From IMG/VR virus record IMGVR_UViG_3300025803_002109: 64,000 nt of DNA; one strand, given 5' to 3'. Under the pieces are notes generated by a model. It searched no databases and was not told where the DNA came from. It saw only the letters and a list, made by a program, of their open reading frames with translations. Position 1 is the stretch's first letter. Every line of letters starts with the position of its first letter. This stretch comes from an uncultured virus (IMG/VR IMGVR_UViG_3300025803_002109) (taxonomy: Duplodnaviria > Heunggongvirae > Uroviricota > Caudoviricetes). Positions 8,192 to 57,146 of this stretch are shown here, piece after piece. The translations under genes were made by a program, and so were the position numbers.

Positions 8192-8974
8192 ATGAGTTGG
8201 ACTATTGATATTCACGAAGACGCTTGGTTTGCTTTGCATTTGAACGGAAGCCATGAGGGACTGCCCGAAGGTGATTTCAAATACGAAAGTAATAATAGAG
8301 TTGCCCTCGTAGAAAGAAAAACTTGGTCGGACGCTTACAACTCTTGGAGGTCTAAAAGATTAGAAGATCAACTTTCTCGAATGCTTCTTCGAGAAGATGT
8401 CAATCATCCCTCACAAGTAATTTTACTAGTCGAGGGTCGCAAAGAAACTTTATTTGGATACGGCTCCGGAAGTTCTAGAAAAACTAATGCTGACAGCAAA
8501 AAGCAAGCCGAGAATTTACAAGCATTTTTAAATAGAATTTCTGCTGAAATTTGTCCAGTCGTATATACTTCGGGACAGTCTGGAACTTTGCGTTATCTCA
8601 AAGCATTGGCTACTCGTTTAGATTCCGGAGATTTTGGAGATCTAGTTCGTAAGCCGACCATAGTTAGTTCTTCTCGAAATCAATCTCATGCTTTCTTAGA
8701 AACAATTCCTGGAATTGGAAAGACTACGGCTAAGAAAATTGCGGCTCATTATAATTCTTTTAGTGAATTCTTTATGGATTTAAATTCTTTTTCTTTTGAA
8801 GCCGAAACTAATCAACCCGGATCCTCTGATCAAGAACTTATGAAAACTTTTTTATGGAAGTTAGGTCCTGCCAAAGTTAAATCTCTAAAAACATTTTTAA
8901 CTGCCGAAGACAACTGGGTCAGCCATCAAACTAAAACTCCGAGAGAGGTCTTGAAGACAATAGGTGGTAGTTAA
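8192..8974 (+). CDS. ERCC4-type (XPF/Mus81/Hef) structure-specific nuclease with HhH
   Basis: GDF...VERKTWSD (GDxnERKx3D), RLEDQLSRM, LLVEG, IPGIGKTTA. Confidence 0.9.
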   Translation: MSWTIDIHEDAWFALHLNGSHEGLPEGDFKYESNNRVALVERKTWSDAYNSWRSKRLEDQLSRMLLREDVNHPSQVILLVEGRKETLFGYGSGSSRKTNADSKKQAENLQAFLNRISAEICPVVYTSGQSGTLRYLKALATRLDSGDFGDLVRKPTIVSSSRNQSHAFLETIPGIGKTTAKKIAAHYNSFSEFFMDLNSFSFEAETNQPGSSDQELMKTFLWKLGPAKVKSLKTFLTAEDNWVSHQTKTPREVLKTIGGS

Positions 8975-9156
8975 TGACACCTCAATTTATTTGTAAGGCG
9001 TGTGAACAAGCCATAGTATATTATGAAAAACCAGGAAACTATCGATGTTTTTGTGGAGATGTAGTTTTAACTTATACTGTGCAAGGATATATTCGCACTA
9101 ATTGTGCCGCCGATAAAGTAGAAGTAATTTGGCCAACTGATGACTCTGAAGAATAA
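8974..9156 (+). CDS. Small Zn-ribbon protein
   Basis: CKAC...CFCG; TAATG overlap with upstream stop. Confidence 0.65.
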   Translation: MTPQFICKACEQAIVYYEKPGNYRCFCGDVVLTYTVQGYIRTNCAADKVEVIWPTDDSEE

Positions 9157-9281
9157 ATTAACAGAACAATTAAATAACAAAAGGAAGGACACGTATATGT
9201 GTCCCTTAGTAAACATAGTTTAGGTTATGATTTGTTCTTAGTTCAAGAAGTTAAGATCTCCAGTAAAGAGGAAGAATAACT

Positions 9282-9422
9282 ATGATATACAATTGTCCAG
9301 TTTGTCGAATGCCTATCGAATTAGGAGCCCCATTTACTACGGACAGAACTGGTCGCCGTCATCATTTGCACTGTAATAAAAATACAGTCGTTAAATTTCC
9401 TTGGGGGAATCGAAAAGTATGA
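9282..9422 (+). CDS. 46-aa Zn-finger peptide (not in ORF track)
   Basis: MIYNCPVCRMPIELG...HHLHC; GAGG Shine-Dalgarno; ATGA overlap with next ORF. Confidence 0.55.
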   Translation: MIYNCPVCRMPIELGAPFTTDRTGRRHHLHCNKNTVVKFPWGNRKV

Positions 9423-9610
9423 GTTTATTATCAGATATTCCTAATACCGACACTAGACCTTGTGCGAAGTGTGAAGATAATCTAAGTTCTAGAAAACTTT
9501 GTTTACTTTGTGATACTATTTATTGTTATAGCACTCCTATTCAATTTTGTTGTTATGGGAGTCATGATTGCATTGGATATGATGATAATGGGAATCCCGT
9601 ATTAGGATAA
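9419..9610 (+). CDS. Small Cys-rich Zn-binding protein
   Basis: CAKC, CLLC, CC..HDC; ATG at 9419 overlaps the previous stop. Confidence 0.6.
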   Translation: MSLLSDIPNTDTRPCAKCEDNLSSRKLCLLCDTIYCYSTPIQFCCYGSHDCIGYDDNGNPVLG

Positions 9611-9651
9611 CTACCCATATTCTTATATAGCAGAGAGAAGTAATAAATGAT

Positions 9652-11541
9652 ATGCGTGGATCATATCAATGTTGTATTTGTGAAAATAATTTTTCTGGAT
9701 ACGGTCATAATCCTCAGCCAATAGACGATACTGAAGGGGCACGATGTTGTGATAGATGTAATTCTAGCGTAGTGATCCCAGCCAGATTGAAAAATTATAT
9801 TCTTGGATCGGAATCTTCAGATAAAGAAGATGCGTGGGGTTTGGAAAAAAGTAGTGCTATCTTAGCCGGAGTTTTCGGAATTGCCCTAGAAGGATTATTG
9901 AATCGTTTAGAAGATTCAGTAGTCGACTTAATGTCGGGCGAAGATAAACCTCATGAAGTAGCATATTATACAGATTGTATTGATTATCTTTGTAGTGGTA
10001 TGGCTGACACTCTTGAAGCCAACTCTGAAGAAATGGATCCTGCAATTGTAGGTTCGATAGTAAGTATGCTAACTATGACTGCCGTAAAGATATCTTCCTA
10101 TGAACAAATTCCAGAAATCAAAATGGCAATGGATCATTTAGATAGTGACTCTGAAGAATCTTCTGATGCTATTGCAGAGATCGTTGCCGAAGAAACTAAT
10201 GAGTTCGGAGAATCTTTAGATATCGATATGTGGTCTGCTGAAGGATCTGGAAAAATTGATAAGTGTCCTGTTTGTGAAGGAACTCAAGTTCTAGAGCAGA
10301 TGGAAATGAAAACTTCTGACTTATGTCTAGGACATAGTGATGCTTTTGATGATTTAAATTTGGATGTTCCCTATGCCGCAGAAGATTCTGAAGAATGCAG
10401 CACCGAAGGGTGTGAAAATGAAGCCGGTTATTTTGACAAGGCCAAAACAATTCCAATTCCAAAAGGCATTTGTAAGCGTTGTTTCATTCGCCCTATCAAT
10501 CCCGAAACCGCCCAAGAATTAAGAGTGATGAGGCGACAAGAGAATTCATACAGAGCAGAAGAAGATGAAGAAAAAGATTTGGATATAGATAGATCCTCAG
10601 TCACTCGCCGAGAATCTATAAGAGAGTCTCCAGAGTATTATGTTCATAGTCTGGATGAATATTTCGGACCTTATTATTCTATAGAAGATGCAGAAGATGG
10701 CGTAGAAAGATTAGTATCTAAAGGAATTTATATTATTGGCATAACTAAAGGTCAAAATGAGTGGATACAAGATCTTACTGAGCAAGAAGCAGAATCCTTC
10801 GGTTCTGAAGGCCAAGTAAGTAGTTGCTCCGGTAATGTATATCTTGATGATTGGGATTTCGATTATGAGGGATTTGATAATAAAAAACAGATTAACATTA
10901 ATGACCCCAATCTGGACATCGAAGATGTAGTGTCTCCAGACATAAAAGCCACTATTTGTTGTAGTTCCAGTGGTGAGTGTCAAGAACAAATATTTGACAT
11001 AGATCAAGTATTAGAAATAATTTATGAGAAAGAACTTTCATTAAATGATCTTGCGAAAGCAGGTGTAATGGAAGAAATTCTAGAAGAAATGGGACTGAAC
11101 TGGGATGAAGAAATAGGTTATTCTGCCGAAAGTTACCAGGGTCAAATTGGAGATATAGAAAGTATTTCTCGTTGGATGAGAAACACCGCAAATGCCGGAA
11201 CAGATTATGATGATTGGTATTGGGATGGTGAAAAACTAATGGTTTATGCGGTCGACCCTATTGCTGGAATAGATACGGAAGAAGAATATACTAAAGCAGA
11301 TCTAATGGAATTAGGAGTATTAGAAGATATGTTCCCTAATATGGATGAGTTTTCTGAGGGTGAAGAATTTTCTGCAGAAACTATAGAAAAGTTTTTCGAA
11401 CAAATTGAAGCCTTGCTTAACAAAACGGCTGGCAATTCTTGGAGTTTAGATTCTGATGGTTATCCAGAGGAAAATCCACCTAAAGTAAATATCAACATTT
11501 CTATGGAGCCTGAGTCTCCAGAATTCTTCGAAGGTCTTTAA
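9652..11541 (+). CDS. Acidic modular protein with Zn fingers and repeated [FYW]-x-[AS]-E motifs
   Basis: TTATATAG at 9623; N-terminal CCIC...GHNP.P...CCDRCN finger; WSAE, YAAE, YRAE, FGSE, YSAE, FSAE. Confidence 0.85.
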   Translation: MRGSYQCCICENNFSGYGHNPQPIDDTEGARCCDRCNSSVVIPARLKNYILGSESSDKEDAWGLEKSSAILAGVFGIALEGLLNRLEDSVVDLMSGEDKPHEVAYYTDCIDYLCSGMADTLEANSEEMDPAIVGSIVSMLTMTAVKISSYEQIPEIKMAMDHLDSDSEESSDAIAEIVAEETNEFGESLDIDMWSAEGSGKIDKCPVCEGTQVLEQMEMKTSDLCLGHSDAFDDLNLDVPYAAEDSEECSTEGCENEAGYFDKAKTIPIPKGICKRCFIRPINPETAQELRVMRRQENSYRAEEDEEKDLDIDRSSVTRRESIRESPEYYVHSLDEYFGPYYSIEDAEDGVERLVSKGIYIIGITKGQNEWIQDLTEQEAESFGSEGQVSSCSGNVYLDDWDFDYEGFDNKKQININDPNLDIEDVVSPDIKATICCSSSGECQEQIFDIDQVLEIIYEKELSLNDLAKAGVMEEILEEMGLNWDEEIGYSAESYQGQIGDIESISRWMRNTANAGTDYDDWYWDGEKLMVYAVDPIAGIDTEEEYTKADLMELGVLEDMFPNMDEFSEGEEFSAETIEKFFEQIEALLNKTAGNSWSLDSDGYPEENPPKVNINISMEPESPEFFEGL

Positions 11542-11601
11542 GCCATAACTACTTGCTCAAAGTATATATAGGTAGTTGCCATAATTAGATAATAGATTTC
11601 T

Positions 11602-11895
11602 ATGGCAGTTCCAGATTATAAAGATGCAGTTTGGCTAAAGAATGCTTACTTGCATAAGAAACAAACTATGAATGCTATTGCTAGTTCTTGTGGAGTATCT
11701 CCAATGACTATTCAAAATTGGTTAGATAGACATCAAATTCCAACTCGTCCTCGTGGTCGCACAGTTGCTTCATCTGTGGCTCCTCCTCGACTGCGAACTC
11801 AAGGATACGTCACTATATCTATTAAAGAATATGATAACTTGAAGCAAGCCAAACTTAGATTAGAAAATCTAAATAATCAAACTATAATGGAGTGA
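11602..11895 (+). CDS. Helix-turn-helix DNA-binding protein
   Basis: YKDAVWLKNAY...TMNAIASSCGVSPMTIQNWLDRHQIPTR. Confidence 0.8.
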   Translation: MAVPDYKDAVWLKNAYLHKKQTMNAIASSCGVSPMTIQNWLDRHQIPTRPRGRTVASSVAPPRLRTQGYVTISIKEYDNLKQAKLRLENLNNQTIME

Positions 11896-12689
11896 ATGAT
11901 ATGATGAAATCTCAATCTGAAGAAAATGATTCCTTAGTTATTGGTAATTTTTCGGCTACTCTATCTGCAGGTCATGCTAAAGATTTGTTAAAAGGTTTGG
12001 AATCTCTGGGCGATCAAACAATATTTACTTTCTCTGCTGATAAAGGATTGGAAACCGGAATGGTTTCTAATGACGTTTCTACTTTAATTCGTTGTCAACT
12101 GGTTCCCGAACTTTTTGAAGAATATACATTTGTAGGAGATGCTCCTATAAAACTAGGAGTAGTTTTAGAAAGAGTAAAAGATATCACTAAAACATTGACT
12201 ACTAAAGATACCTTAAAATTTGTCTATGATTCTAAACAACCTAATATCCTTCTGATAGATGCAAATAATATGCGAAGAACTATTAGACTAGTTAAACTAG
12301 GGTTGCTAAAAGAAGTTCCTGTAATGCCCATTCCCGAAAATGGATGGGATTATAATTTTGATATACCTCTAAAATCTGTAAAAGATTATCTTAAAGCAGT
12401 GCCCAAAGGATTTTCAGAATTCAGTGTAATTGTAAATAAAAGTTTGGAAACTTTTACTCTATTGACTAGTGGAGAGTCTCCTATAGAACTTTCTTTAGTT
12501 CCTGAAAATTGGAATTGCACTGGCGATTCACGAACTCACTATGGCGTAGAAAAATTAGCCGCCGGAATTTCGATGGCTAAGAAAACCAATGCCACCATTT
12601 ATGGCGGAGATAGTTTGCCAGTTCTGATACAATGGAATCATGCTGAGAACTTTAAGTGCGAATGCGGGGTTGCACCCCGAATGAAGTAG
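11892..12689 (+). CDS. pcn: PCNA sliding clamp (divergent, archaeal type)
   Basis: About 250-aa core; L.PELFEEY, LGVVLERV..I.K, YGVEKL, LPVLIQW, terminal VAPR (canonical LAPR). Confidence 0.8.
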   Translation: MNDMMKSQSEENDSLVIGNFSATLSAGHAKDLLKGLESLGDQTIFTFSADKGLETGMVSNDVSTLIRCQLVPELFEEYTFVGDAPIKLGVVLERVKDITKTLTTKDTLKFVYDSKQPNILLIDANNMRRTIRLVKLGLLKEVPVMPIPENGWDYNFDIPLKSVKDYLKAVPKGFSEFSVIVNKSLETFTLLTSGESPIELSLVPENWNCTGDSRTHYGVEKLAAGISMAKKTNATIYGGDSLPVLIQWNHAENFKCECGVAPRMK

Positions 12690-15179: not shown

Positions 15180-17078
15180 ATGCTTAGTAGTAGGGTATTA
15201 GTAGGTATTTCATTAGCCGTTTGGAATAGTTTTGCGGCTTATCAAGTTGCCAGTTCAACGGCCGCTGGAGAAATGGGCAATCCTAAAACTTATGGTTATG
15301 GATTAGCATTCACTACTGGGCTGACTGCTCTTTGGATCTGGAGTGGAATTTTAGATAAAAAATCTCTAGCACTAGACCCAGAAAACTTTTCTGGAGTTAC
15401 GGGCTCCGAGGATCCGGAAAAAGAAAATTTAGAATTTAAGTTTACTTCTACTTTGGAAGCATTAAATTATGCTCGCTGGAAAGAAATTATAGGTGCAGAT
15501 ATTTACAAAGAAGGTGCTTGGGAATTAATACAGAATGAAGAGGCTAAATCAAAAGAAACTGGTAAACCAGTATCCAAAAATAAAATAAAAAATAAAGTTC
15601 TAGCACTAGCAGCCGAGGATCCGGATTATATTCCTAGAATAGAAGAATCTTTTGACGAACTTCGATTTCCTCGAAAACTAAGTATTAATTATGGAGCCAA
15701 TCGGGAAAGTAATCTGGATCTAGTGATTCCGCCTAATATTAAATACGATGGTGTAGTCGAAGAAGCAGTATTTTTAACTGGTAGTGGCAAAACTGAAGTT
15801 ACCATCGGATTATCATTTTTACAAGAAACCAGTGCCGGAACTTATTATCCCTTTGTATTAAAAATTAAAGGCCAGGGAAATGATTATACTCAAGCCACTA
15901 GAAGTTTACAAAAGAATGTAAATTTTGTTTTGAATACTGAACCTTGGGATGCCTCTGGAGGCACACCCATAGATATAGATAATGATGGAATTTATGATTT
16001 AGTTTTAGATCCTCGAGGAAATATTAAGAAACCCTGGTGGACCGAAAAAAGATCCGAGGAAAGTTGGGATGATGAAGTCCCAAATTGGGCTGAATCTGCA
16101 ACAAAAAATCTTCCGGAAATTCCCTGGAATTTAGAATATGTTCCTAATGCTAGACTATCCAAAGATTCTTGGTCGCTAGGATCTCCAGCAAAATCTTCTG
16201 ATCAAGATATTCAAAAACTAGAAAAAGAAATTAGACAAAATATTCATACTAATCAGTTTCTAGAAGTAGGCTGTCCAATTTGCGGTAGTATCAATCAATT
16301 TACTAGAAAAGTTTCCGACAACGGAATTCGATACAATTGTCAAGATTGTATGTATACTTCTGGAGAACATTATGTATCCTTAAAATCCAGAGGAGATAAA
16401 ACTTTGGCCGACTTTGGAATGAATACGCAATGTGGAGTTTGCGGAGAATCCGTTAAAGCATATACTAACTCTCAATTTAAAAGACATTTGAAATCACACC
16501 AGCAGGAAAAAAATCTGGGATCGGAATCTAGAAAGGATCCCGGATCCAGTTACTTCAAAAACTTTTCTGCCGAAAAGAAATCTAATCCAACCAGTCTCCA
16601 AAAAACTTATGGAAAGAAAGGAGCCCGGATCCGCCGTAGAATTAAAAAAGAATTAATGGAAGAAAATATTTTTGGAACTAAGTCTGGACAATGGTCTGCT
16701 CGTAAATCTCAAGAATTAAAACGCCGTTATGAATCTGCTATGAATTCTAAAGGATTAAAACCATATGCAAGTTCTGCACGATCATCTTCACAAAAAGATT
16801 TGTCCCGTTGGACCAAACAAGATTGGTCTACTGCATCGGGTAAAAAATCTTCAGTTACGGGAGAACCTTACTTCCCTGCCAAAGCAGTGGCCGCTTTGAA
16901 GAAAGCCAAATTATACAAGAAAGCAAGATCTCAAAAAAGAAAAGCCACGAGATTAGGTAAACAACGTGCCACCTATACTCCAGACATTCAAGCCATTGTC
17001 GCCAATTATAGATCCGAGGAAAATCAACCAGACATTCAAAAAGTTTTAGAGTTACCTCTGGAGGGAAGATTTGAGTGA
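15180..17078 (+). CDS. Mosaic membrane protein: 2 N-terminal TM, Zn fingers, basic DUF5872-like domain
   Basis: CPIC/CQDC ribbon, C2H2-like CGVC...H...H, GQWSARKSQ...LSRWTKQDW.T.SGK.S..TGE.Y.P.KA. Confidence 0.8.
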   Translation: MLSSRVLVGISLAVWNSFAAYQVASSTAAGEMGNPKTYGYGLAFTTGLTALWIWSGILDKKSLALDPENFSGVTGSEDPEKENLEFKFTSTLEALNYARWKEIIGADIYKEGAWELIQNEEAKSKETGKPVSKNKIKNKVLALAAEDPDYIPRIEESFDELRFPRKLSINYGANRESNLDLVIPPNIKYDGVVEEAVFLTGSGKTEVTIGLSFLQETSAGTYYPFVLKIKGQGNDYTQATRSLQKNVNFVLNTEPWDASGGTPIDIDNDGIYDLVLDPRGNIKKPWWTEKRSEESWDDEVPNWAESATKNLPEIPWNLEYVPNARLSKDSWSLGSPAKSSDQDIQKLEKEIRQNIHTNQFLEVGCPICGSINQFTRKVSDNGIRYNCQDCMYTSGEHYVSLKSRGDKTLADFGMNTQCGVCGESVKAYTNSQFKRHLKSHQQEKNLGSESRKDPGSSYFKNFSAEKKSNPTSLQKTYGKKGARIRRRIKKELMEENIFGTKSGQWSARKSQELKRRYESAMNSKGLKPYASSARSSSQKDLSRWTKQDWSTASGKKSSVTGEPYFPAKAVAALKKAKLYKKARSQKRKATRLGKQRATYTPDIQAIVANYRSEENQPDIQKVLELPLEGRFE

Positions 17079-21650: not shown

Positions 21651-23288
<1,638 letters not shown>

Positions 23289-27847: not shown

Positions 27848-29092
27848 TTGACTATTACTATGGCCTCACTAATTTTATTTACTGGAAAAGGAGGAGTGGG
27901 TAAAACCACCGTATCTTCTGCTACTGCCTTACACTATGCTAGTCTTGGAAAGAAAACAATTTTAATTTCTACCGATCCTGCTCATAGCACAGACGATACA
28001 TTAGGAGTTACATTAGGTTCGGATAAAATTGTGCCCGTTGCCCCCAATTTTTGGGCTAAAAATATTAATTCCGAAGCCGCCGCATCTAGATTTGCCGAAA
28101 CTCTGAAACAAGGTATGGAAAAACTTTTTGGAAATTCTATTCCTGGCTTTGATCCTGAAATCTTTTCTGACATGGCTACCTTTCCAGGAATGGATGAATA
28201 TTTTGCCTTAGATGAAATTCTAAAGTTAGTGCAATCCACTGATTATGATATCGTAGTTTTCGATACGGCTCCTACTGGACACACTTTGAAAGCCTTGAAT
28301 GCTCCCGCTGCAATTAGAACATTTATTTTGCGTATTCTTCGAATGCGAGCCAAGATTGAATCTATCAAAGGAATTTTTAAGGCTCGAGATAATACCGTTC
28401 CAGAACTAATAAATAATTTGGAACAAATTTGTGAAAAGGTAGAGAGATTAACTTATATTTTAAGAAATCCCGAGTTTGTATCCGTAAACTTAGTTAGCAT
28501 ACCTACGGAATCCGGATATCAAGAGTGTGCCCGAACTATAAACTTTTTAGAAAGAATGAATATTCCCATAAATAATATAGTAGTCAACAATGTCATGCCT
28601 AACTTTGGAAAATCAGAATGGGAAGCCGCTAACGAACACCCTAGTATTCAATTAGTTAAAAGACATTATGATTCTCAACAACCTCACTTATCCAACTTCA
28701 AAAAGTTGTGCCAAGAACATCAATTAAAATTAGTAGGAATGAGTTTGTTACCTTTCGAACCACGAGCGGAAAAATTAAAAGATTATGCAGACATACTTTT
28801 TAGATCACCATCTAACGGAGGCTTCGACTGGAATCCGAAGCCTATTTTTGATGGCGATAGTTCGGAAGATCTAGTTCGCATGAATTTACCCTACATCGGA
28901 AAACTCGAAAAATCAGATTGGAAAAATTTAGGTTCTGATGGAACTAGTCCTGGATATTCATTTGGTAGTTTTCAATTCGGAAACACTTGGGACGGTATCT
29001 ATCGAATAGATGAAAGTATTTTGGATCCAAATGCTACGTATATTAAAAGAAAAACTGGAGAACACACAGTTACCTTTAGTAAAGTAAATTAA
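27848..29092 (+). CDS. ArsA/Get3 (TRC40)-family ATPase, single domain, with probable C-terminal alpha-crystallin-like domain
   Basis: GKGGVGKTT, STDPAHS, PGMDE, FDTAPTGHT, VVNN; helical insert after DTAPTGH; C-terminal extension of about 85 aa; start probably ATG 27860. Confidence 0.9.
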   Translation: MTITMASLILFTGKGGVGKTTVSSATALHYASLGKKTILISTDPAHSTDDTLGVTLGSDKIVPVAPNFWAKNINSEAAASRFAETLKQGMEKLFGNSIPGFDPEIFSDMATFPGMDEYFALDEILKLVQSTDYDIVVFDTAPTGHTLKALNAPAAIRTFILRILRMRAKIESIKGIFKARDNTVPELINNLEQICEKVERLTYILRNPEFVSVNLVSIPTESGYQECARTINFLERMNIPINNIVVNNVMPNFGKSEWEAANEHPSIQLVKRHYDSQQPHLSNFKKLCQEHQLKLVGMSLLPFEPRAEKLKDYADILFRSPSNGGFDWNPKPIFDGDSSEDLVRMNLPYIGKLEKSDWKNLGSDGTSPGYSFGSFQFGNTWDGIYRIDESILDPNATYIKRKTGEHTVTFSKVN

Positions 29093-30145: not shown

Positions 30146-30580
30146 GTGATTAATATGTTCGGACACAGTGCTTGGGATACTACAGTTAAATATTCCGAGG
30201 GGAGATCTTCAAAAATAATTTCCAAAGGCTATAAAGCAGAAGGAGATGATATAATTGGAGGTTCTCCAGATAAGTCTTTAGAACGCCGACCAAAAGCCGG
30301 TTCCATTACTGACTGTCAAGTTAGTGAGTGGAGTGACTGGGAAGTTTCTAATGATGGTTGTATAGAGATTCGCACTCGTAAGGTTGTTAGAGAACCTACT
30401 TGTGGTGGAAAAGAATGTCCTATATTAGTAGAAGAAAGACCAGTTGGTGCAACTGACTCTGTTTGGGGTTGGAGTGAATGGACAGCAGATCCAAACGATC
30501 CTTGTTTCGAAATCCGAAAAAGAATTATGAGATCTCCTGCTACTTGTGGAGGAAATCCAAACGATCCTTTACTAAGTTGA
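30146..30580 (+). CDS. Protein with two thrombospondin type-1-like repeats (start probably 30155)
   Basis: CQVSEWSDW...C.EIRTR.V...P.CGGK.CP.L.EER; second copy WSEW...CFEIRKR...P.TCGG. Confidence 0.75.
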   Translation: MINMFGHSAWDTTVKYSEGRSSKIISKGYKAEGDDIIGGSPDKSLERRPKAGSITDCQVSEWSDWEVSNDGCIEIRTRKVVREPTCGGKECPILVEERPVGATDSVWGWSEWTADPNDPCFEIRKRIMRSPATCGGNPNDPLLS

Positions 30581-32739: not shown

Positions 32740-33654
32740 ATGGTATTCTTCATTCGCCGTTATCTAAAAGGAGTTAAGAATTCCGGCACGAATGATATTC
32801 TAACTTCCGAAACCGAAATTAATACGGCTATGTTTTTACAGTTGGCCGAAATGACAGGTCCAGGAAAATATATTCTAGGTGAAAGAGGTCGTGGAATCCG
32901 TGGATTCAAAAAAATTACTGATACGATCATTACTCCGGCTGATGAATTAAAGGTTTTTGCAGCCGAAGGTGAAGAAATGGCTTCTGAAATCGTTGAAGCC
33001 GAAGAAGCAGTAGAAGCCGAAACTGAAGAAGCAGTAGTGGATTCTGGTTTGGATGCTGAAACTGTATCAAAAGCCTCTGCAGTATCAGAAACTCACCAAT
33101 CAGATTATCAATCCAATAAGTCTAATCCTCGAATTTCAATGAAATCATCTCGTTCCTTAGAATCTATGAGCGACAGTGAACTTTATGAAACTCTGGAAGC
33201 CATGACTAATACTCGTTTAGAAGCCGAAAATTTGGCTTCATTTCAAGCCGATATGAATAATATTATGGGTGAACTTCGTTCTCGTGGATCTATAGGAGCA
33301 GTAGATTCGAGTAAAGAAGCAGATAGTGATAAAGTCGTTATTGGAGCCGGTTTTAGTCCTATGAAAGCATTTGCTATCGGCACAGTAGCCGGTATTGGTA
33401 TCGGAGTAATCGGCACTATGACTTATTATAAGAGGCAACTCGATGACGTAACTGTAAAGATGTCGGAATTAGAAGCCTCTATTAGAGAGGCAGAGACTAC
33501 TATTCAATCTCAAGATCGCCGCATACAAAAATCAGAGGAAGACAAAAGCAAGGAAAAAACTAGGAAACCAAAACAAAAAGATCCATATGATCTAGATTTT
33601 CAATTCCTCAGTGACTTTCAAAGAAACCAAGGCGGTTCTCGATTTAGTCCATGA
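32740..33654 (+). CDS. Membrane protein with coiled coil and AE motifs
   Basis: TTAAATAG at 32711; TM AFAIGTVAGIGIGVIGTM then heptads. Confidence 0.8.
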   Translation: MVFFIRRYLKGVKNSGTNDILTSETEINTAMFLQLAEMTGPGKYILGERGRGIRGFKKITDTIITPADELKVFAAEGEEMASEIVEAEEAVEAETEEAVVDSGLDAETVSKASAVSETHQSDYQSNKSNPRISMKSSRSLESMSDSELYETLEAMTNTRLEAENLASFQADMNNIMGELRSRGSIGAVDSSKEADSDKVVIGAGFSPMKAFAIGTVAGIGIGVIGTMTYYKRQLDDVTVKMSELEASIREAETTIQSQDRRIQKSEEDKSKEKTRKPKQKDPYDLDFQFLSDFQRNQGGSRFSP

Positions 33655-39097: not shown

Positions 39098-42000
39098 ATG
39101 ATGGAAATGAGTGATGAAGAAATTATTGAAACCCCTATTATTGATGAGCCTACTCTAGAAGATGAACTTATTCCTACCGAATCCATGATGAATTCTATGA
39201 TAGAAGACTCTATTGCCGATATGGTAGATGAAGATGAAGATGAGTCTCCTGGAACTATGAGTTCTGCTGTCAAAGATTCAGTGTCTTTGGAAACCAGCAT
39301 AAATAATATTCTAAAAACTTATTTGGGTGATCAACTGTCAGAAACTCTTCTAGAATATGCTGACATAGTTAATCCTGAAGAAATAGACTCTGCCGACAAC
39401 GTATTAATATTTGGAGGACGCACTCGAAATGAAATTAAATTTGCTCAACTCCGCCAAGGTTCAAGTCCTGCAGGTGGAGTCGAAATACTTTCTGGTATTG
39501 AAGTCGGTTCTCTTTCTCCCAGCAATGCATTCTCCGATGAAAGAATTAGAAAAACTTTAGAAAATAAAGTTCTTCGTTTAAACGCTGGACCTAAGAGTGA
39601 GGATAAGAGGGCTGAACAAGCCCAACGGCTATCCAATATCCGCCGTTCAATTAATTCCCTTACTTCCGTCTTTGGGTTTGATGACCCTAGACAAGCGGAA
39701 GCATTTATCGCCGCTTGGTTAATGAAAGATTCCACTTGCCGATTATCTGGAATTCCAGGAACTGGTAAAACTACTGTAGTCGAGTCGGCTGCATTACTTA
39801 TGGCTAACTCCTATGGATTCGATGATCAAATAAGATTTTATCCTAAAGATGCTTCTGATCCAGAATCAGAATTCCTTATCTTTGAAAACGGTCAACAATA
39901 TGAAGCCTACCTAAATCAGAATAAGGATGGTATTCGAGATCTCTGGAATAACTGGAGATTTACTGAATGGTATTCTATGAATCCAGAACAACCCACTGAA
40001 AAAATTGCTAATTTAGGCTCCTCTGGTTCTTATCTATATGATTTTGGTTTCTTGGCTAAAAAGTATTCCGTGATGGAGGGACAAGTTGCTACTTATCGCC
40101 CAAAACTTGGAAGTATCTCTCCGGATCTCTATCGTAAAGCCCTCTTAAATTGTTGGCTATATAAAGAGAAGGGGATTAATCCATTAGATGGTTCCGAATA
40201 TAACATTTACAAAATCATGCCGATCAACCTAGGTCTTGAAGCCTTTGGTCCTGGTAGGGATGGAAAAATTACGGCGGGAGAATCACACCCTAATGATCCT
40301 AATTATAAGGCTCAATTCACAGTAGATTATGCAAAACTTTTGACTCCCGGTTTAAAAGAAAAATTAACTGGTAACATGACAATGGCTGATTTATTACAGT
40401 CTTTAGACTTTAGAACGGACGCTGGCCGTAATGAAGGATTTGCCCTTCGTGAGTGGTTAATGTCTCATTACTATGATGAGAGAAGAGATAGAGGAGATGC
40501 AGGTCGAAGTTCCATAAAGGGAGAAATGCTAAGAGAGATTGGTATTGCTAAAATCGATTATGATAAGCGAGCCGATGAAGTCCTCTATGGTATGGATATT
40601 AGACAAGTTTCTAGAAAAGATCCAAATGATCCTGGAAAAACAATTTCCGCTTATGATTTCGAACCAATACCAAGACCAGTTGTTACGCAACCTATCAAGT
40701 TCTTTAACGAAGCAAACCGTTCTCAATCTGGAGTAGAAGATGCAATTCTAGGATTGATTGCTGAAAAGACTGTAGAATATCGTGGACGTTCATTCCGTTC
40801 TCCTTCTTTCGTGGCTTGGATGGATACTAACCCTCACCAAAAAGGAAACGATTTGGCTTTCGTAGATCGAATTGATATGGAACTTTTATTCAGCACACTG
40901 ACTCTAGGAGATAGATATATGCAGTTGAAGTCTCAATATAAAGATAGAACTGTCAATCAAGATACAGATGCTCTCAGCCAACCTCAAGATTTAGTTATTT
41001 TTGATTCCGAAATTGGTATGGCTTCTGATTCACCTAACCGTGCCCGTTCTATGCGAATTACAGATTTGATGAAACTCTGGAAATATATCGATGGAATACC
41101 TTTCACTAATGGTGGTCGTTCAATGATGGGCTATGATGGATTAAGAGACATTTCTTTGATATCAGTTATGTTTACTCAAAGATACATGACACGCCCTACC
41201 GAAACTACAATGGGATCTGATCAAAGTAGAACGGCTCAGTTACCCGATTCACAAAACATTCACAGCAGTCCTTTAATAGATATTTCAAAGACTACTAATC
41301 AAGATCTTTTAGAAGGAAACTCTCCGACTACTATGTTCGAAACAGATAACGCTTCGTCTTTTGGATCTATCGGAACTGATGGTTCTCTACAAGCACCCGC
41401 TTTATTCAAGAGAGTTTTAGGATTCAGGTTTACTAAATCTTTAGTAAAACTTTCTCGAACATTAGCCTTCTTAAGAGGAAAAGATTTCGTTACTAGAACT
41501 GAAATTTTAGATGCCCTTCCATATGTTATCGGACATCGTATGGGTCCTGCCCGTGCCGGTAATGACCCTAAAGGTAGAGATCTCGGAACTGTAACTGGTG
41601 GATTAGGTGTGCTACCTTCTGAACAAGAATTAATTAGAGAACTTTTAGTTTCTGGATATGTAAAGCCAGTTTCTGGAGAGAGTTCAGATGATGGTTCCTT
41701 GAAGTTCGAACCGCTATATGAAGCACAAGCGAATCCAAACACAAATTCTCGAAAAAATACATTACTTGATGTTTGGGATACCGTTTATCAAAGATGTATG
41801 GCTACTTTGGCCTCCTGTGATAACTTTGCTCAATATGAAGCCAAGATCCTTCGTCCATTAAAACAAATGTTAAATGGAGAAGATGCAGATAATGCAGAAA
41901 ATACTACTCCTATTCATTGGCATATTGCTACTATGGTAGTAGAGCAAGAAAGAAAAGAAAAAGAACTTTCTCGATGTCTTCGAACTGATGATGGCCTAAC

Positions 42001-43312
42001 TTATCGCCAAAGATATAACAAATACTTCCGAGCCATCAATATTCCAACCGATGTTAATGAATCATTAGATATGCAAGCCCCTAGCACTGCTGAAGGTATT
42101 CAAATTGATTACAGTTTATTAGATTATTATATTTTGAGATCTAAAATTGCCTCCGATCCACTGCTCTTTACTGATGATAGAACTTATTTACTTGACTTAG
42201 TAGAAGCACGTATCTCTACGTTTGCTGGACCGGCTTTCAATGTGGCCGCTGAGGATGCTATACAAGTTCCAATTGGATACTCTACTTACTATTTGTGGAA
42301 TGATTCCAGTCCACTAATTCAAGATTACATAGTTCATCCAAATCCTGGAACTTACAATATTTCCACATATAATGATGCTTTGGGTGCTTACGGCCAACTA
42401 ATGCAAAACAGTAAGAAAATTGATGTCGCTGCCATAATCGGAGAAATCAGTTCCGAGGACGATGCGATATTTAATTTAACTAATGATGCTACTGTAGGGC
42501 TTTCTTATGAAATGTCCAACCAAAAGATGCAAATTTCGGGATCCTATCTTCATCGTAAAGAAAGTGATGGATCTTACTTGGAAATAGATAGAACTACGGC
42601 TCGATCTCCTGGAACGTATTTGGCTAGTATGGATGCCATTACTGATAATTTCCGTGCTTGGTGCGATTCTGGAGTAATAATGTCTAGCAATGGCAGTATT
42701 ATAAGTTCTAATGCAGATTTCGAATTGACTATGGAAGATTGGGAACTCGCAGTAGAAGCCGTCTTAGCCAACCCTAATCAAGATATTGCTCAAACTTTAT
42801 CAGATGCGGGCATAGATCCTACTTGGGAATTTGCTTTTGATGATTCTGGTTTATTCTTTTGCTTCGATCTAGCACACCATAGTTCTTCTCGTAAAGCAAA
42901 CACTTTACTAGTTATGATGAAAGAACAAGGATTGATTGATGAAGATGCTACTGATATTCCAAACGATAAATTAAAACTATGGGTTTGGATCGCCGCTAAA
43001 AAATATATAGATGACGATGCTGCCACAGCAACTTGGAGATATATTACTACTTATGGAATTACTAGTGGTTTCTTAGCCGATACAAAAATAATTAGAAAAG
43101 GAACCGGTCAATATGAAATGACAGTTCCCGGAACATTTGTAGCCATTGATAGTCAAGCATTTTATGACGCTTGTGGAAAGGCTAGCAATTGGTCCCCGGC
43201 AGGAGATGATACAGTTCCATTTATGGATGCAGGAAATTTGACCGAGGCTGATGCGGGAGCATACCACCAACTATTTTTAGGTGCTTTATTCCGTGCCAAC
43301 CAGGGGTCTTGA
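39098..43312 (+). CDS. Very large MoxR-type AAA+ ATPase
   Basis: Walker A GIPGTGKT; DEVLYG; Walker B-like KFFNEANR; AILGLIAEKTV; sensor DTNP; AFVDRID Arg finger; ALPYVIGHR. Confidence 0.85.
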   Translation: MMEMSDEEIIETPIIDEPTLEDELIPTESMMNSMIEDSIADMVDEDEDESPGTMSSAVKDSVSLETSINNILKTYLGDQLSETLLEYADIVNPEEIDSADNVLIFGGRTRNEIKFAQLRQGSSPAGGVEILSGIEVGSLSPSNAFSDERIRKTLENKVLRLNAGPKSEDKRAEQAQRLSNIRRSINSLTSVFGFDDPRQAEAFIAAWLMKDSTCRLSGIPGTGKTTVVESAALLMANSYGFDDQIRFYPKDASDPESEFLIFENGQQYEAYLNQNKDGIRDLWNNWRFTEWYSMNPEQPTEKIANLGSSGSYLYDFGFLAKKYSVMEGQVATYRPKLGSISPDLYRKALLNCWLYKEKGINPLDGSEYNIYKIMPINLGLEAFGPGRDGKITAGESHPNDPNYKAQFTVDYAKLLTPGLKEKLTGNMTMADLLQSLDFRTDAGRNEGFALREWLMSHYYDERRDRGDAGRSSIKGEMLREIGIAKIDYDKRADEVLYGMDIRQVSRKDPNDPGKTISAYDFEPIPRPVVTQPIKFFNEANRSQSGVEDAILGLIAEKTVEYRGRSFRSPSFVAWMDTNPHQKGNDLAFVDRIDMELLFSTLTLGDRYMQLKSQYKDRTVNQDTDALSQPQDLVIFDSEIGMASDSPNRARSMRITDLMKLWKYIDGIPFTNGGRSMMGYDGLRDISLISVMFTQRYMTRPTETTMGSDQSRTAQLPDSQNIHSSPLIDISKTTNQDLLEGNSPTTMFETDNASSFGSIGTDGSLQAPALFKRVLGFRFTKSLVKLSRTLAFLRGKDFVTRTEILDALPYVIGHRMGPARAGNDPKGRDLGTVTGGLGVLPSEQELIRELLVSGYVKPVSGESSDDGSLKFEPLYEAQANPNTNSRKNTLLDVWDTVYQRCMATLASCDNFAQYEAKILRPLKQMLNGEDADNAENTTPIHWHIATMVVEQERKEKELSRCLRTDDGLTYRQRYNKYFRAINIPTDVNESLDMQAPSTAEGIQIDYSLLDYYILRSKIASDPLLFTDDRTYLLDLVEARISTFAGPAFNVAAEDAIQVPIGYSTYYLWNDSSPLIQDYIVHPNPGTYNISTYNDALGAYGQLMQNSKKIDVAAIIGEISSEDDAIFNLTNDATVGLSYEMSNQKMQISGSYLHRKESDGSYLEIDRTTARSPGTYLASMDAITDNFRAWCDSGVIMSSNGSIISSNADFELTMEDWELAVEAVLANPNQDIAQTLSDAGIDPTWEFAFDDSGLFFCFDLAHHSSSRKANTLLVMMKEQGLIDEDATDIPNDKLKLWVWIAAKKYIDDDAATATWRYITTYGITSGFLADTKIIRKGTGQYEMTVPGTFVAIDSQAFYDACGKASNWSPAGDDTVPFMDAGNLTEADAGAYHQLFLGALFRANQGS

Positions 43313-43316
43313 ATAC

Positions 43317-44555
43317 ATGAGTATTAAATCATTTTCCGAGGCTCAGGCACAAGCCGCCTATAACGCTGAATTAAATGCACCGGCTGCATTAATTGATGCC
43401 TGGACTGAAATACTTCCTTTACAAGCAGGAACAAAATTGAATAGTGGTGGTTCCATTACTGATTTCGATATTGGTTCTGGATATCACGGCCCTGCCACTA
43501 ATATGGGAAAAATCTTTATGCCTCTACAGTATATACCCATGTGTATACCAGAAAATTATCATATGTTTGATCCTAGATTCGTAGATATTATGATTAAATA
43601 TGTTGCCGGTTTCGTCTTGGCTCACGAAATAGGACACAACAATATACATCCTGGCCAGTCTGCCGGAGATTGGGCAACAGCAATTAAAGATATTGAAGTA
43701 GATGAATCTGATAAAGTTATGTGGATGAATTTTATTTCAGACATAATGGTAAACTATAATGTTAATAATGCTACTGCTCTTTCTGGAGGTGTCTCTGAGA
43801 CAGACAGAGAAAATTATATTCTAAACACTACTTTAGGAAATCATGTATCCATGTTTTTAAGAACTCAACACAATCCTGCCCATATGCAAGAAGTTTTAGA
43901 TGCCAAAAGAACTTATACAGGAGTTCCTATTTCAGATAATCGACAAGTAAAAGACGACATTGTTCCAGATGAAGATCCTCTTTGGCATTATTATAGTGGA
44001 TTAGGAAGAGGAAATCAATATTTCCCTTCTTTGGCACAATCTGTTTGTGAAAATCATCCTAAAGAATATTTACAAGTTCGACCTCGAAAGACTGGAAACC
44101 CCGGAGAAACTAGGTTAAGTGATTCTAAATCTTATACAGTAGTCGATGTTGAAACTTATGATGGAAAACATAAGGATGAATTAATTGCAGAGTCTAATAA
44201 GAAAGCATCATCAGCACCTTATAATTTATTACCTTATTATCAACCCATTGCTAAAATTAAAATTGGTTCTGACTGGTATGATGCACGATATTTTGATGAC
44301 ATTTGTCCATTATCTGGGAAAGTAATGTGGGGTGGATCTACCTGGAATTATTGGTTACAATCAGAAACAAAAGAAACTTGGGATCAAAAGGTAGGAGGAG
44401 ATGATAATCGAGCACAAATTGTTCATTTATTATGTAATGAGTGGGGAGGCCACTATGCAAATGAGGGATTTGCTGGAAAAACAGGATACAAAGCCGGTGA
44501 TGCTTGGATAGATGCTTTTGCACCCGTAATGCACCAAGTTTTTAGATATGAGTGA
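43317..44555 (+). CDS. Zincin metallopeptidase-like protein (DUF2201 N-terminal-like)
   Basis: FVLAHEIGHNNIH (HExxH) followed by NFISDIMVN; ORF open from 43281, likely ATG 43317. Confidence 0.75.
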   Translation: MSIKSFSEAQAQAAYNAELNAPAALIDAWTEILPLQAGTKLNSGGSITDFDIGSGYHGPATNMGKIFMPLQYIPMCIPENYHMFDPRFVDIMIKYVAGFVLAHEIGHNNIHPGQSAGDWATAIKDIEVDESDKVMWMNFISDIMVNYNVNNATALSGGVSETDRENYILNTTLGNHVSMFLRTQHNPAHMQEVLDAKRTYTGVPISDNRQVKDDIVPDEDPLWHYYSGLGRGNQYFPSLAQSVCENHPKEYLQVRPRKTGNPGETRLSDSKSYTVVDVETYDGKHKDELIAESNKKASSAPYNLLPYYQPIAKIKIGSDWYDARYFDDICPLSGKVMWGGSTWNYWLQSETKETWDQKVGGDDNRAQIVHLLCNEWGGHYANEGFAGKTGYKAGDAWIDAFAPVMHQVFRYE

Positions 44556-44570
44556 GTTGGAGGAAATAAT

Positions 44571-47141: not shown

Positions 47142-47205
47142 CATAAGTTAATATAGCAGACAGAATAAAGTAAAACTATTAAATTAAATTAAATAAATTA
47201 AAATT

Positions 47206-47222
47206 GAGGAAGTAAGGAGGGT
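47206..47222 (+). repeat. 17-bp element GAGGAAGTAAGGAGGGT, copy 3 of 4
   Basis: Exact match; here it also provides a Shine-Dalgarno for the vWA gene. Confidence 0.9.
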
Positions 47223-47230
47223 CTTTAAGT

Positions 47231-48313
47231 ATGGGAGGAACATTTGAGCAAACCGCAATTGTTACTAAAGATCCCTATGCGTGGTTGTCTGAATCTCCGA
47301 TAGAGGCAGATCCCGCCGATTATCCTGAATTTGAAAATCCATTGGAAGTTGTAGTTCGTTCATTAAATCAGATGATATTTCCTTCACCTAAGAAAATTAA
47401 ATTTCCTGAAGAACCAACTGGTCGAAAATCTTGGATGCCAGGTATTGATCCAGAATCTAGAGTAATTCCTGAGACTATTGTTCCTGGAATTCTAGAAGGC
47501 AATCCTCTACAAAGAGTTATGCAATATACTCCTTCAGGAGATCCGACAGAAGGTGAAGCCACCTTCATTAATTTTATTTGTGATTGTTCAGGTTCGATGA
47601 GCCGATCAGATATGGGTTTGTTGCCTAATGGAGATCAATGTGCCCGTTGGGAAATGGCTAGGATTATTTGTTCTAGCATTTTAGAAGTTGCTAAAACAGA
47701 AGAACACTATTTCCAAGTAATAGGATATGATACTTCTGCCTGGGATATTTGGGAAGGTCCTTCTAATGATTACGATGCGGCTCTAGATTATATTTTAAGA
47801 TTTAATGCTGATGAATCCTCCGACACTGGAGCCCAGGCTCCATTCTTTCCAAGAGGTGGCACTGCTGCCGGAACAGGAATGGCTAGAGCATTGGAAAACA
47901 TGGAAAAGTTTGTAGTAGGAGGTAAATGGAAGGTTAAAAATTGTTATACTTTCGTTATTTCAGATGAGGATCTGTCATTTGGTGAGGCTAACAATAAGTC
48001 TAACCGCACAGTTGGTTATTGGGATGAAAAGTTACGGGCTTATGGTCCAGTTTTCTATGCCTTTACTACTCAAGTTCTTCCCGATGGATCCGTAAATGAA
48101 AAAGTTTCTGGACAAATGGTTAGAGCAATTAAATCCTTAAAAGAGCAATTAGACAATCATTATGCCGGTAGATATAAAGTAAGCGATTGTTCGACAAGTT
48201 TTGGATTATTTTATGATCCGATTACTAAGAAGACGATTGGAGGGGGAACTTTTATAGAAGTTTGTCAAGGAAGGTCTAATGTAGCCTGTGAAGGAGCATT
48301 TAGTGACAAATAA
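47231..48313 (+). CDS. von Willebrand factor A (vWA) domain protein
   Basis: MIDAS FICDCSGSM, GGT...GMARAL, FVISD. Confidence 0.85.
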   Translation: MGGTFEQTAIVTKDPYAWLSESPIEADPADYPEFENPLEVVVRSLNQMIFPSPKKIKFPEEPTGRKSWMPGIDPESRVIPETIVPGILEGNPLQRVMQYTPSGDPTEGEATFINFICDCSGSMSRSDMGLLPNGDQCARWEMARIICSSILEVAKTEEHYFQVIGYDTSAWDIWEGPSNDYDAALDYILRFNADESSDTGAQAPFFPRGGTAAGTGMARALENMEKFVVGGKWKVKNCYTFVISDEDLSFGEANNKSNRTVGYWDEKLRAYGPVFYAFTTQVLPDGSVNEKVSGQMVRAIKSLKEQLDNHYAGRYKVSDCSTSFGLFYDPITKKTIGGGTFIEVCQGRSNVACEGAFSDK

Positions 48314-48389
48314 AATAATGAATTCTTTTTATGTGCTTGTTTAGATGTGAACCCTTAAATATCTGTAGGTCATAACTAAAAGTGATTAT

Positions 48390-56690: not shown

Positions 56691-57146
56691 ATGTCTCGAA
56701 AATGGAGATTAGGCGATAGAGTCACTTCCATTGCAGTATCTTCTTATCCAGGAGTAGGTATAATTGAACATATTCGTTTCGATGGTATTGATGTTATTTG
56801 GAAAGATGGTTCTTGGAGTCAAGAAAGACCTATTGATTTAATTTTTGCGGGTAAACCTACGGATCCAGTAGTAAAAAATGCAGAATCTATTAATCTAACT
56901 AATCTTAAGGATCCGATCAATGAAAGAATTTTACTGAATCCAATTTTAGATGTTGTTCCGATGGCTTTTGGAAATGGTTCTCTAGAACCTTTAATTTCCA
57001 ACTTGAAAAAAAGTAATTTGCCGAAGTTAACTGGACAGTTTCCGAACGTTGCTCAAGAAAATTTTCAGATATATCAAGAAATAGATATTGCAGCCATGCA
57101 ACCTGGGGCTCCTATTCCAATGTTTTCTAAGGGTGTGATATTTTGA
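56691..57146 (+). CDS. Protein with N-terminal SH3/KOW-like barrel
   Basis: WRLGDRV...GVGII...IDVIWKDG. Confidence 0.7.
   Translation: MSRKWRLGDRVTSIAVSSYPGVGIIEHIRFDGIDVIWKDGSWSQERPIDLIFAGKPTDPVVKNAESINLTNLKDPINERILLNPILDVVPMAFGNGSLEPLISNLKKSNLPKLTGQFPNVAQENFQIYQEIDIAAMQPGAPIPMFSKGVIF

Follow-up and report, generated by a model that had tools for sequence, protein, structure and literature searches.

Does a short peptide that recurs between the modules of a long viral protein mark the places where the chain is cut? This question is raised by an open reading frame (ORF) at positions 9652-11541 (+ strand) of a 64,000-nucleotide stretch of DNA, called the window in what follows, from the uncultured virus IMGVR_UViG_3300025803_002109 (IMG/VR), filed under Caudoviricetes. 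Its translation, P0001, is a candidate polyprotein of 629 amino acids (aa) with multiple modules, acidic (23% Asp plus Glu) and Cys-rich (3% Cys). A sequence-only reading had proposed that unrelated modules are separated here by a recurring motif, [FYW]-x-[AS]-E, and all seven tetrapeptides that it named, six of this form and one LGSE, are present in the translation.

As far as the sequences tell, the motif is a protein-level junction signal, in which Ala is preferred and Met sometimes takes the place of the aromatic residue. Its position at module joints is well supported, and cutting at these joints is plausible. Our preferred reading is that of an endoprotease cleavage site, with the cut after Glu, to which we give a probability of roughly 0.45.

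Motif excess over composition

The sequence-only reading had cautioned that the background of such tetrapeptides must be measured. Expected counts were obtained by shuffling each protein on its own composition, and an excess over composition was borne out. P0001 holds 6 [FYW]-x-[AS]-E sites, compared to 1.04 ± 1.0 expected, a number reached in none of 5000 shuffles. The 75 non-overlapping + strand ORFs of the window (at least 50 aa, 19,610 residues in total) hold 42 sites, compared to 18.7 ± 4.5 expected, and none of 300 shuffles reached 42. About half of these 42 sites (approximately 19) are attributable to chance. An independent ORF call on both strands gave 28 occurrences of the Ala form, [FYW].AE, against 7.7 expected (z 7.0). 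For control variants, the observed/expected ratios were 1.04 (reversed motif), 1.39 (Asp), 1.50 (Gln), 1.08 (aliphatic first position), 0.84 (Gly/Thr), and 1.11 and 1.23 (spacing shifted by one). Against a post-hoc choice of the motif, approximately 24,000 three-residue patterns in four spacings were scored in a blind scan. With the (GQ)n tract in ORF 21651 and zinc-ribbon Cys patterns set aside, F.AE came out on top, with 16 occurrences in the window against 3.1 expected, and 43 against 12.5 when the related genome G001 (see below) was added.

A comparison of orphan proteins with enzymes had been suggested as a check, and it located the excess in the orphans (29 sites vs 13.0 expected, 0 of 500 shuffles) and in P0001, not in the ten recognized enzymes (7 vs 4.6 expected, 90 of 500 shuffles). 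The enzyme copies mentioned by the sequence-only reading, FDAE in the ribonucleotide reductase and WRAE in the exonuclease, are present, as is every site that it listed in other ORFs, all of them on the + strand; its ORF 24207 is the ORF with start 24168 in the present call. The sites are not clustered at the N-termini, since 8 of 42 fall in the first 45 residues, which make up 17% of all residues.

The Ala codon at the motif varied (GCA 13, GCC 10, GCT 5, GCG 2), and the DNA pattern of the motif occurred 42 times in frame, versus 4 and 1 times in the other two phases. Because the codons vary and the pattern is frame-specific, we read the motif as a signal at the protein level. A DNA-level element, either a promoter or a recombination site, was ruled out by the same codon variety and frame specificity.

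Module joints in P0001 and its relatives

P0001 has no match among Pfam or PHROG families, in the phage collection or in IMG/VR, nor in the two related genomes G001 and G002, and is in this sense lineage-specific. Relatives were found in metagenome protein collections, 33 in number, with a 100% identical copy on a 100.8-kb metagenome contig (L002). P0001 and 13 homologs form the alignment of 14 sequences, A1, referred to below. A HMMER search with P0001 returned 1416 proteins at E-values up to 0.001, most of which cover residues 4-50 only, a zinc ribbon, and are mostly stand-alone proteins of 56-154 aa.

The modules of P0001 extend approximately over aa 1-50, 55-193, 198-240, 245-299, 304-382, 387-489, 494-572, and 577-629. 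Module 1, the N-terminal zinc ribbon, matches 138 other proteins, most of them 56-154 aa long, and these matches stop at aa 46-50. The joint behind it, LGSE (aa 51-54, positions 9802-9813; like all features below, on the + strand), reads YGAE, YGSE, FRAD, FRAE, FSSE or FAAE in relatives. WSAE (aa 194-197, 10231-10242), the joint after a helical module, is W[SAT]A[ED] in 13 of the 14 sequences of A1, the distant P0030 not being alignable there. Three other proteins (P0034, P0035, and P0036) match P0001 upstream of this joint and diverge directly after MYTAE or MYSSE.

The next joint, YAAE (aa 241-244, 10372-10383), is a cassette insertion point. In close homologs it is followed by three unrelated inserts or by none: a zinc-ribbon cassette, ECSTEGCENE...CFIRP (aa 245-299, 10384-10548), closed by YRAE (aa 300-303, 10549-10560), an insert of approximately 130 aa closed by WNAD, and a third one closed by KYAE. 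P0001 and P0003 have the ECSTEGCENE cassette, P0004 and others lack it, and it is found again in other contexts, flanked by xAE, in P0030, P0041, P0045, and P0046.

Toward the C-terminus, YSAE (aa 490-493, 11119-11130), the joint before a WYWDGE module, is [YF]S[AS][ED] in 12 of the 13 sequences aligned there, and the module itself also occurs in a 102-aa protein (P0105). FSAE (aa 573-576, 11368-11379) is the joint before the C-terminal module. Matches to this last module begin exactly at aa 577 in P0028, P0029, and P0044; in P0044 it is placed near the N-terminus, after YEAE. The remaining site, FGSE (aa 383-386, 10798-10809), is probably not conserved. At its position, the other 13 sequences of A1 have FGRD... 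(8), another segment (2) or no such region (3), and in other proteins the module preceding it ends in [WM]-M-A-E. Since FGSE is peculiar to P0001, approximately five or six of the seven sites appear to be real signal; to this extent the claim of the sequence-only reading stands, and for FGSE, which is absent from the 13 homologs, it does not.

Local BLAST of the eight P0001 segments against proteins other than the close homologs found modules 1, 4, 5, 7, and 8 rearranged or on their own, and the ends of the matches lie only a few residues from xAE motifs. The long relatives (P0030, P0032, P0033, P0041, P0043, P0045, P0046, P0071, and P0083) are strings of zinc ribbons and small domains, with joining peptides such as KSAESFAAQ, YGAESFEATE, and NAESFSAEK. 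In 18 long relatives the AE dipeptide occurs 159 times, compared to 74 expected. Two residues upstream at these sites Phe is 4.5-fold and Tyr 3.5-fold enriched; after AE, Ser is enriched 4.2-fold and the following Phe 6-fold. This AE-S-F context is best read as tandem copies of the motif, xAE-SF-x-AE. Furthermore, 17 non-redundant multi-module relatives carry 68 sites vs 15.0 expected (0 of 300 shuffles), and 123 small proteins of less than 200 aa, mostly stand-alone zinc-ribbon homologs, carry 7 vs 5.2 expected. Because the long relatives are enriched and the small homologs are not, the motif belongs to the joints and not to the modules. Whether modules are shuffled at AE borders in relatives had been named as a check of the motif, and there they are indeed shuffled, inserted, and fused. 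The clusters of seven module-bearing proteins are all named “hypothetical”, and P0083 found no match in IMG/VR.

Virus lineage and distribution of the motif

Two related genomes place the window. G001 is a 160-kb IMG/VR record found through its HerA-type ATPase (52% identical), with inverted terminal repeats at its ends by the IMG/VR classification. G002:C16 is a 136-kb contig found through the Get3 gene (ATPase 59% identical). It is filed under a metagenome-assembled genome of Rickettsiales, and is probably a viral contig binned with a bacterium. The Pfam scans covered 158 of 214 ORFs in G001 (at least 90 aa and inside one chunk; 7 border-crossing ORFs left out) and 125 of 170 ORFs in G002:C16. 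G001 encodes TBP (E-value 5e-46), PolD DP2 (1e-104), PCNA_N (1e-8), ERCC4, an AEP primase, and a nuclease related to the archaeal Holliday-junction resolvase. G002:C16 encodes TFIIB (7e-42) and PolD. Three C5 DNA methylases were also seen in the relatives of the window.

The presence of TBP, TFIIB, PolD, and PCNA in these relatives identifies an archaeal virus lineage, and the window is tied to it because 42 of its 75 proteins match G001 in the same gene order. Within the window itself, the archaeal-type genes are ERCC4, a weak PCNA_N (E-value 0.0066), and Get3/ArsA only. The window is part of a lineage of large (136-160 kb) marine archaeal viruses, which is apparently undescribed. A literature search, with subscription journals largely outside its reach, returned no account of the motif, of polyproteins in archaeal double-stranded DNA (dsDNA) viruses, or of such PolD/TBP-encoding marine viruses.

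The motif excess extends to the relatives. G001 holds 92 sites vs 47.7 expected (z 7.0), and G002:C16 64 vs 32.8 (z 5.4), with 45 vs 17.0 for the Ala form (z 7.7). In three close relatives (L001, L003, and L004) the observed/expected ratio was 2.4-2.6. Four contigs with a GC content near 0.6, sharing a distant ATPase only, showed no excess. The ratio was 0.58 in Pelagibacter phage HTVC008M and 1.46 in a 50-kb region of T4, in which [LI].E reached 1.31 (z 5.3). On these counts we take the motif to be a trait of the lineage.

Conservation in other orphan proteins

In aligned regions, 10 of 22 window sites are kept in G001 or G002 (7 of 13 in G001, 3 of 9 in G002), compared to 21 of 123 for six control patterns (Fisher p 0.005). 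Conserved islands amid diverged flanks were found in three proteins. FAAE (residue 73) of the 304-aa protein at 32740-33654 is kept in G001 amid divergent flanks, and the region is absent in G002. FQAE (residue 100) of the 247-aa protein at 60786-61529 corresponds to FVAE in G001 and is not kept in G002; in this protein a C-terminal membrane helix closely follows MSAE. The ORF at 63377-64000, which runs off the end of the window, has FGSE (residue 128), with FASE at the aligned position in G001. In the 632-aa protein at 15180-17078, with FSAE (462) and YRSE (610), the modules are rearranged relative to a 904-aa G001 protein, and YRSE is YRSE in G001 and YRAE in G002. A conserved Pro/Ala-rich protein at 50621-51571 has MKAESF and MMAEST; its MKAE is kept in all three genomes.

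Some gene starts and fusions also coincide with the motif. In G001, the ortholog of the 283-aa protein at 57143-57994 is longer by 93 aa at the N-terminus. This extension ends in FHAE, and the alignment with the window protein starts at the residue that follows; FIAE (217) of the window protein aligns with YGAE in G001. For a wider test of N-terminal extensions, ORF 57143 yielded 2 close homologs only. Two adjacent genes, 58061-58426 and 58423-59115, are one gene both in G001 (...YYGAESF...) and in G002 (...MMAAEE...). When extension boundaries were counted automatically, and crudely, the strict motif stood at 5 of 28, compared to 6% of random windows in the same proteins (p 0.023), many of the 28 being paralog matches and not true fusions.

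Another mosaic, the 266-aa protein at 52056-52856, combines an N-terminal Cys knuckle and YGAE with an “IHGDFD” tag and a hydrophobic C-terminus. Its residues 2-24, YGAE included, are 74% identical to an internal part of a 574-aa G001 protein. The tag, approximately 55 aa long (...SSFT..ELT.SSAIHGDFD.ASLNYSGHQN.EV.AE; aa ~170-225), lies inside five unrelated mosaic proteins, among them P0031, P0071, and proteins on L019 (G001) and L031 (G002:C16). In all five it ends in Ala-Glu, as EVRAE in two, LDAE in the 52056 protein, and ARAE and RSAE in the others. A second repeat of approximately 35 aa (...GVP[QV]WYG(S)AE) has nine copies in G001 and G002 and none in the window.

Proposed cleavage and its parallels in known systems

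In the cleavage reading, P0001 and its relatives would be polyproteins, in which small, mostly zinc-ribbon modules are translated as one chain. A cut after the Glu of each joint motif would release the modules as separate proteins, and in other orphan proteins leaders would be trimmed, and fused partners separated, at this signal. Cutting as such, its position after Glu, and the possible cutter are inferred here. A cut after Glu is favored because module and ortholog starts fall on the residue after it. Cutting is favored because each cassette carries a closing copy, because doubled copies resemble the propeptide sites of giant phages, and because the motif matches a proven site, the leader of T4 IPII and IPIII.

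Both T4 proteins begin with MKTYQEFIAE, the final FIAE of which fits the window motif; ORF 57143 itself has FIAE. In T4, gp21 removes this 10-residue leader by a cut after Glu; processing depends on residues 8 and 10 and is blocked by Asp at position 10. The leader accepts unrelated cargo behind it, and the cargo differs between related phages (PMC9026906). Giant-phage proteases (phiKZ gp175, SPN3US gp245, and that of 201phi2-1) also cut many proteins after Glu at a short motif, and the propeptides carry redundant sites (PMC9026906), which match the doubled AESFxAE form of the virus relatives. The analogy to T4 and phiKZ drawn by the sequence-only reading thus holds for the form of the site, with IPII and IPIII leaders ending in FIAE; it does not hold for the virus, which is archaeal and not a T4-like phage.

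There are also differences. The T4 cleavage code is L/I-x-E, with Leu or Ile at P3 as the defined position, which agrees with the 1.31-fold excess of [LI].E in the T4 region, whereas the window motif has an aromatic P4 and Ala at P2. In T4 head proteins, L or I stands at P3 in 3 of 4 [FYW].[AS]E matches. T4 has one N-terminal leader per protein, whereas the window lineage, which is archaeal, has many joints per chain, and no homolog of the gp21/S77 protease was found in the window or G001. The giant-phage motif is S/A/G-x-E or A-x-E, with a small residue at P3. In giant phages cutting is proven by mass spectrometry, whereas here it is proposed from the sequence, and no head genes are recognizable.

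Two further systems are comparable in other respects. Iyer, Burroughs, Anand, de Souza and Aravind are said to have described, in 2017, polyvalent proteins of phages and conjugative elements, which are shuffled chains of domains with a proposed processing after delivery. Their domains occur elsewhere as stand-alone or recombined forms, which is true also for modules 1, 4, 5, 7, and 8 of P0001. However, they are usually very large enzyme arrays with embedded peptidases, whereas P0001 consists of tiny zinc ribbons and orphan domains with one joint motif; an embedded processing peptidase or enzymatic anti-host domains were not found in it by Pfam, PHROG or HExxH searches. African swine fever virus pp220 and pp62 are cut at GG-X, and adenovirus precursors are cut by adenain. 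These dsDNA viruses likewise obtain several proteins from one chain by a short cutting code, but their clan CE cysteine proteases act on Gly-Gly type sites, and none of these enzymes appeared in our Pfam scans.

The candidate protease and the evidence against cleavage

The single candidate for the cutter is the HEIGHxxxHPG protein at 43281-44555 (likely start 43317), a putative zinc metallopeptidase; a host protease or an unrecognized viral one is equally possible. Its HEIGHNNIHPG is invariant in 13 of 13 family members, and the orthologs read HEIGHLNIHPG in G001 and HEIGHLTTHPG in G002. In the ESM Atlas it has a feature similarity of 0.93 to DUF2201_N clusters. The protein has no Pfam match at E 0.05, and PF13203 finds nothing in G001. 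Against peptidase profiles, M78 was matched by 3 of 13 family members (best E-value 0.22) and M13 by 1 of 13 (0.068). A search of solved structures (PDB), with the single sequence and a profile, gave nothing relevant, and an AlphaFold model from 13 sequences was unusable, with a mean predicted local distance difference test (pLDDT) of 39.9. For this HExxH protein, which the sequence-only reading had named among those to assay, a peptidase nature is suggested by the conserved HEIGHxxxHPG and the ESM Atlas similarity, and is not confirmed by profile, solved-structure or fold evidence. A predicted complex of the protein with P0001 residues 465-520 scored 0.00 (mark 0.32), which speaks neither for nor against binding. 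P0001 itself is without HExxH, every HExxH in the three proteomes having been checked.

The candidate adjoins a 1404-aa AAA+ protein at 39098-43312 with a MoxR-type lid (AAA_lid_2, E-value 1.1e-6), in a gene order shared by G001 and G002. A weak VWA-like protein lies at 47231-48313 (VWA_2, E-value 0.0026, below the Pfam cut-off), and its G002 ortholog matches VWA_CoxE at 5e-6. The cluster 39098-49646 is present in all three genomes. It comprises the giant AAA+ protein (1325-1509 aa), the HEIGHxxxHPG protein, an orphan of 856-944 aa, the VWA/CoxE-like protein, and a membrane-anchored HerA/DUF87 ATPase.

An N-to-O shift at Glu-Ser, by which the protein would cut itself, was considered and rejected: Ser follows Glu at just 44 of 159 AE sites in the relatives, and at 18 of 131 sites in two genomes.

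Several observations weigh against cleavage, some of them on the side of the enzyme. No protease family was found in the family scans of the window, G001 or G002:C16, phmmer with T4 gp21 found nothing in the three proteomes (best E-value 0.24), and the candidate zincin is without hidden Markov model, solved-structure or fold support. The search in G001, for protease and capsid alike, also included six single-family genome searches. Peptidase_S77, the T4-type prohead protease, has no match in the window or G001, and in G001 neither HK97 S78 nor herpesvirus S21 gave a profile match, the latter profile having also missed all its control genomes, which makes it weak as evidence. The element-encoded protease that the sequence-only reading expected has thus not turned up, as no head protease was found in the window or its two relatives (136-160 kb).

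On the side of the sites, Asp replaces Glu at conserved joints (in A1, YAAD in 5 of 14 and WSAD in 2 of 14), which counts against cleavage because Asp at the corresponding T4 position blocks processing. Most close homologs lack the motif at the joint between modules 5 and 6 of P0001, G002 keeps just 3 of 9 window sites, and in the 50621 protein the other 3 of 4 aligned sites vary at the last position (E/Q/D/N/K). The flanks of the motif add almost no information, and a 24-kb relative, G003:C107, shows no excess (7 vs 5.9 expected). Finally, an AlphaFold model of P0001, from an alignment of 22 sequences, is too poor to tell domains from linkers (mean pLDDT 42.3).

The cleavage reading can be widened to a lineage of undescribed, large (136-160 kb) marine archaeal viruses, with their own TBP, TFIIB, and PolD and without recognizable capsid genes. 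Dozens of their small accessory and structural proteins would be made as polyproteins, which would be read by an [FYW]-x-A-E code and cut by a new protease, possibly the HEIGHxxxHPG zincin together with the AAA+ and VWA proteins. We put this wider picture forward tentatively and consider it doubtful as a whole.

Competing explanations

Instead of being cut, the motif could serve as a docking peptide in flexible joints, recognized by a hub of the virus or its host, for instance a factor for assembly or membrane insertion, or an unfoldase. In that case the multi-module proteins would act as multivalent scaffolds or as carriers of cargo. The exchange of Glu and Asp at conserved joints suits binding better than a Glu-specific protease, and the motif is often preceded by acidic residues and doubled, like multivalent short linear motifs. 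The scans of the window, G001, and G002:C16, in which no protease was detectable, point the same way. In T4, targeting and cutting by the leader are separable (PMC9026906). Docking does leave unexplained that genes are split or fused, and orthologs begin, precisely behind the motif, and that a closing copy comes with each inserted cassette. We regard this explanation as unlikely, yet as a serious one.

The motif may also have no biochemical reader, being a tolerated domain-end or linker sequence that travels with copied modules and is retained since recombination between linkers yields in-frame, foldable mosaics. Copies on both sides of the cassettes are what such a cassette grammar would produce, the copies that flank the P0001 cassette have 8 nucleotides (GCAGAAGA) in common, enough for microhomology joining, and the conservation of sites between genomes is partial (10 of 22). 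However, codon choice at the motif is free, the DNA pattern depends on the reading frame, unrelated module families end in the motif, single-domain orphan proteins contain it as well, it forms conserved islands amid diverged flanks, and stand-alone homologs of the same modules show no motif excess (7 vs 5.2). Together, these observations make a grammar without reader quite improbable.

A signal for another step, either the release of a soluble domain from a C-terminal membrane anchor or a modification, is less probable still. The ends of P0041, P0045, P0046, P0030, and P0083 do show the motif, 5-25 residues, a hydrophobic helix, and basic residues, in this order, the window proteins 30761, 48390, and 60786 end likewise, and the virus encodes a Get3/ArsA-type ATPase. 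Nevertheless, most motif copies are internal and far from membrane helices, and the relaxed motif stands upstream of a C-terminal helix in only 3 of 8 window and 1 of 11 G001 proteins.

Chance is refuted for the excess and holds for individual sites: acidic Ala/Ser-rich proteins yield such tetrapeptides, approximately 19 of 42 window sites are expected, FGSE of P0001 is not conserved, and enzymes carry copies, but as an explanation of the whole it is very remote, rejected by per-protein shuffles, control variants, the blind scan, three genomes, and control phages.

Gene content of the window

The window is densely packed, with every large ORF on the + strand and a GC content of 0.35-0.40. Family matches (Pfam, PHROGs) are rare among its proteins. 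They include a class II-type ribonucleotide reductase, a 5'-3' exonuclease, ERCC4, a DenV-like glycosylase, a Get3/ArsA ATPase, an ATP-dependent ligase, a glycosyltransferase, the HerA/DUF87-type ATPase, and the 1404-aa AAA+ protein. Capsid, portal, and terminase families were not found by the family scans in the window, G001 or G002:C16, and 35 orphan window proteins searched against PHROGs at E 0.05 gave no structural or protease family. In the ESM Atlas, ORF 23683, a possible capsid protein, matched unnamed viral clusters only. The 545-aa protein at 21651-23288 has bacterial TSP3 repeats and a long (GQ)n tract (40 QGQ, aa 179-341), and ORF 30146-30580 a spondin-like TSP1 domain.

Downstream of P0001, at 11892-12689, lies a weak PCNA-like sliding clamp (PCNA_N, E-value 0.0066; phrog_947, 0.001), the G001 ortholog of which matches PCNA_N at 1.3e-8. 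In G001 the ERCC4 and PCNA-like genes are directly adjacent; in the window they are separated by 8974-11895, which holds P0001 and three small ORFs (8974, 9401, and an HTH/HNH-like one at 11602). Because the two genes adjoin in G001, P0001 is part of an inserted accessory block.

The Get3/ArsA-type ATPase (27848-29092, E-value 1.6e-61) is also present in G001 and G002. A C-terminal hydrophobic helix, resembling a tail anchor, was found in 8 of 68 window proteins, among them the HerA-type ATPase at 48390-49646, the G001 ortholog of which has it as well. The ATPase and the tail-anchor-like proteins hint at a virus-directed insertion of tail-anchored proteins.

Implications

If the motif is a cutting code, orphan ORFs would turn into defined sets of small proteins, fused and split forms of genes would become comparable between genomes, and a specific pair of enzyme and substrate would be open to direct test. 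The mature proteome of the lineage would then be predictable from its sequence. Archaeal viruses would join T4, giant phages, and large eukaryotic DNA viruses as users of short-motif processing, with polyprotein processing described for the first time in an archaeal dsDNA virus. Whatever the mechanism, a lineage with PolD, TBP, TFIIB, Get3, and a membrane-anchored HerA-type ATPase merits description.

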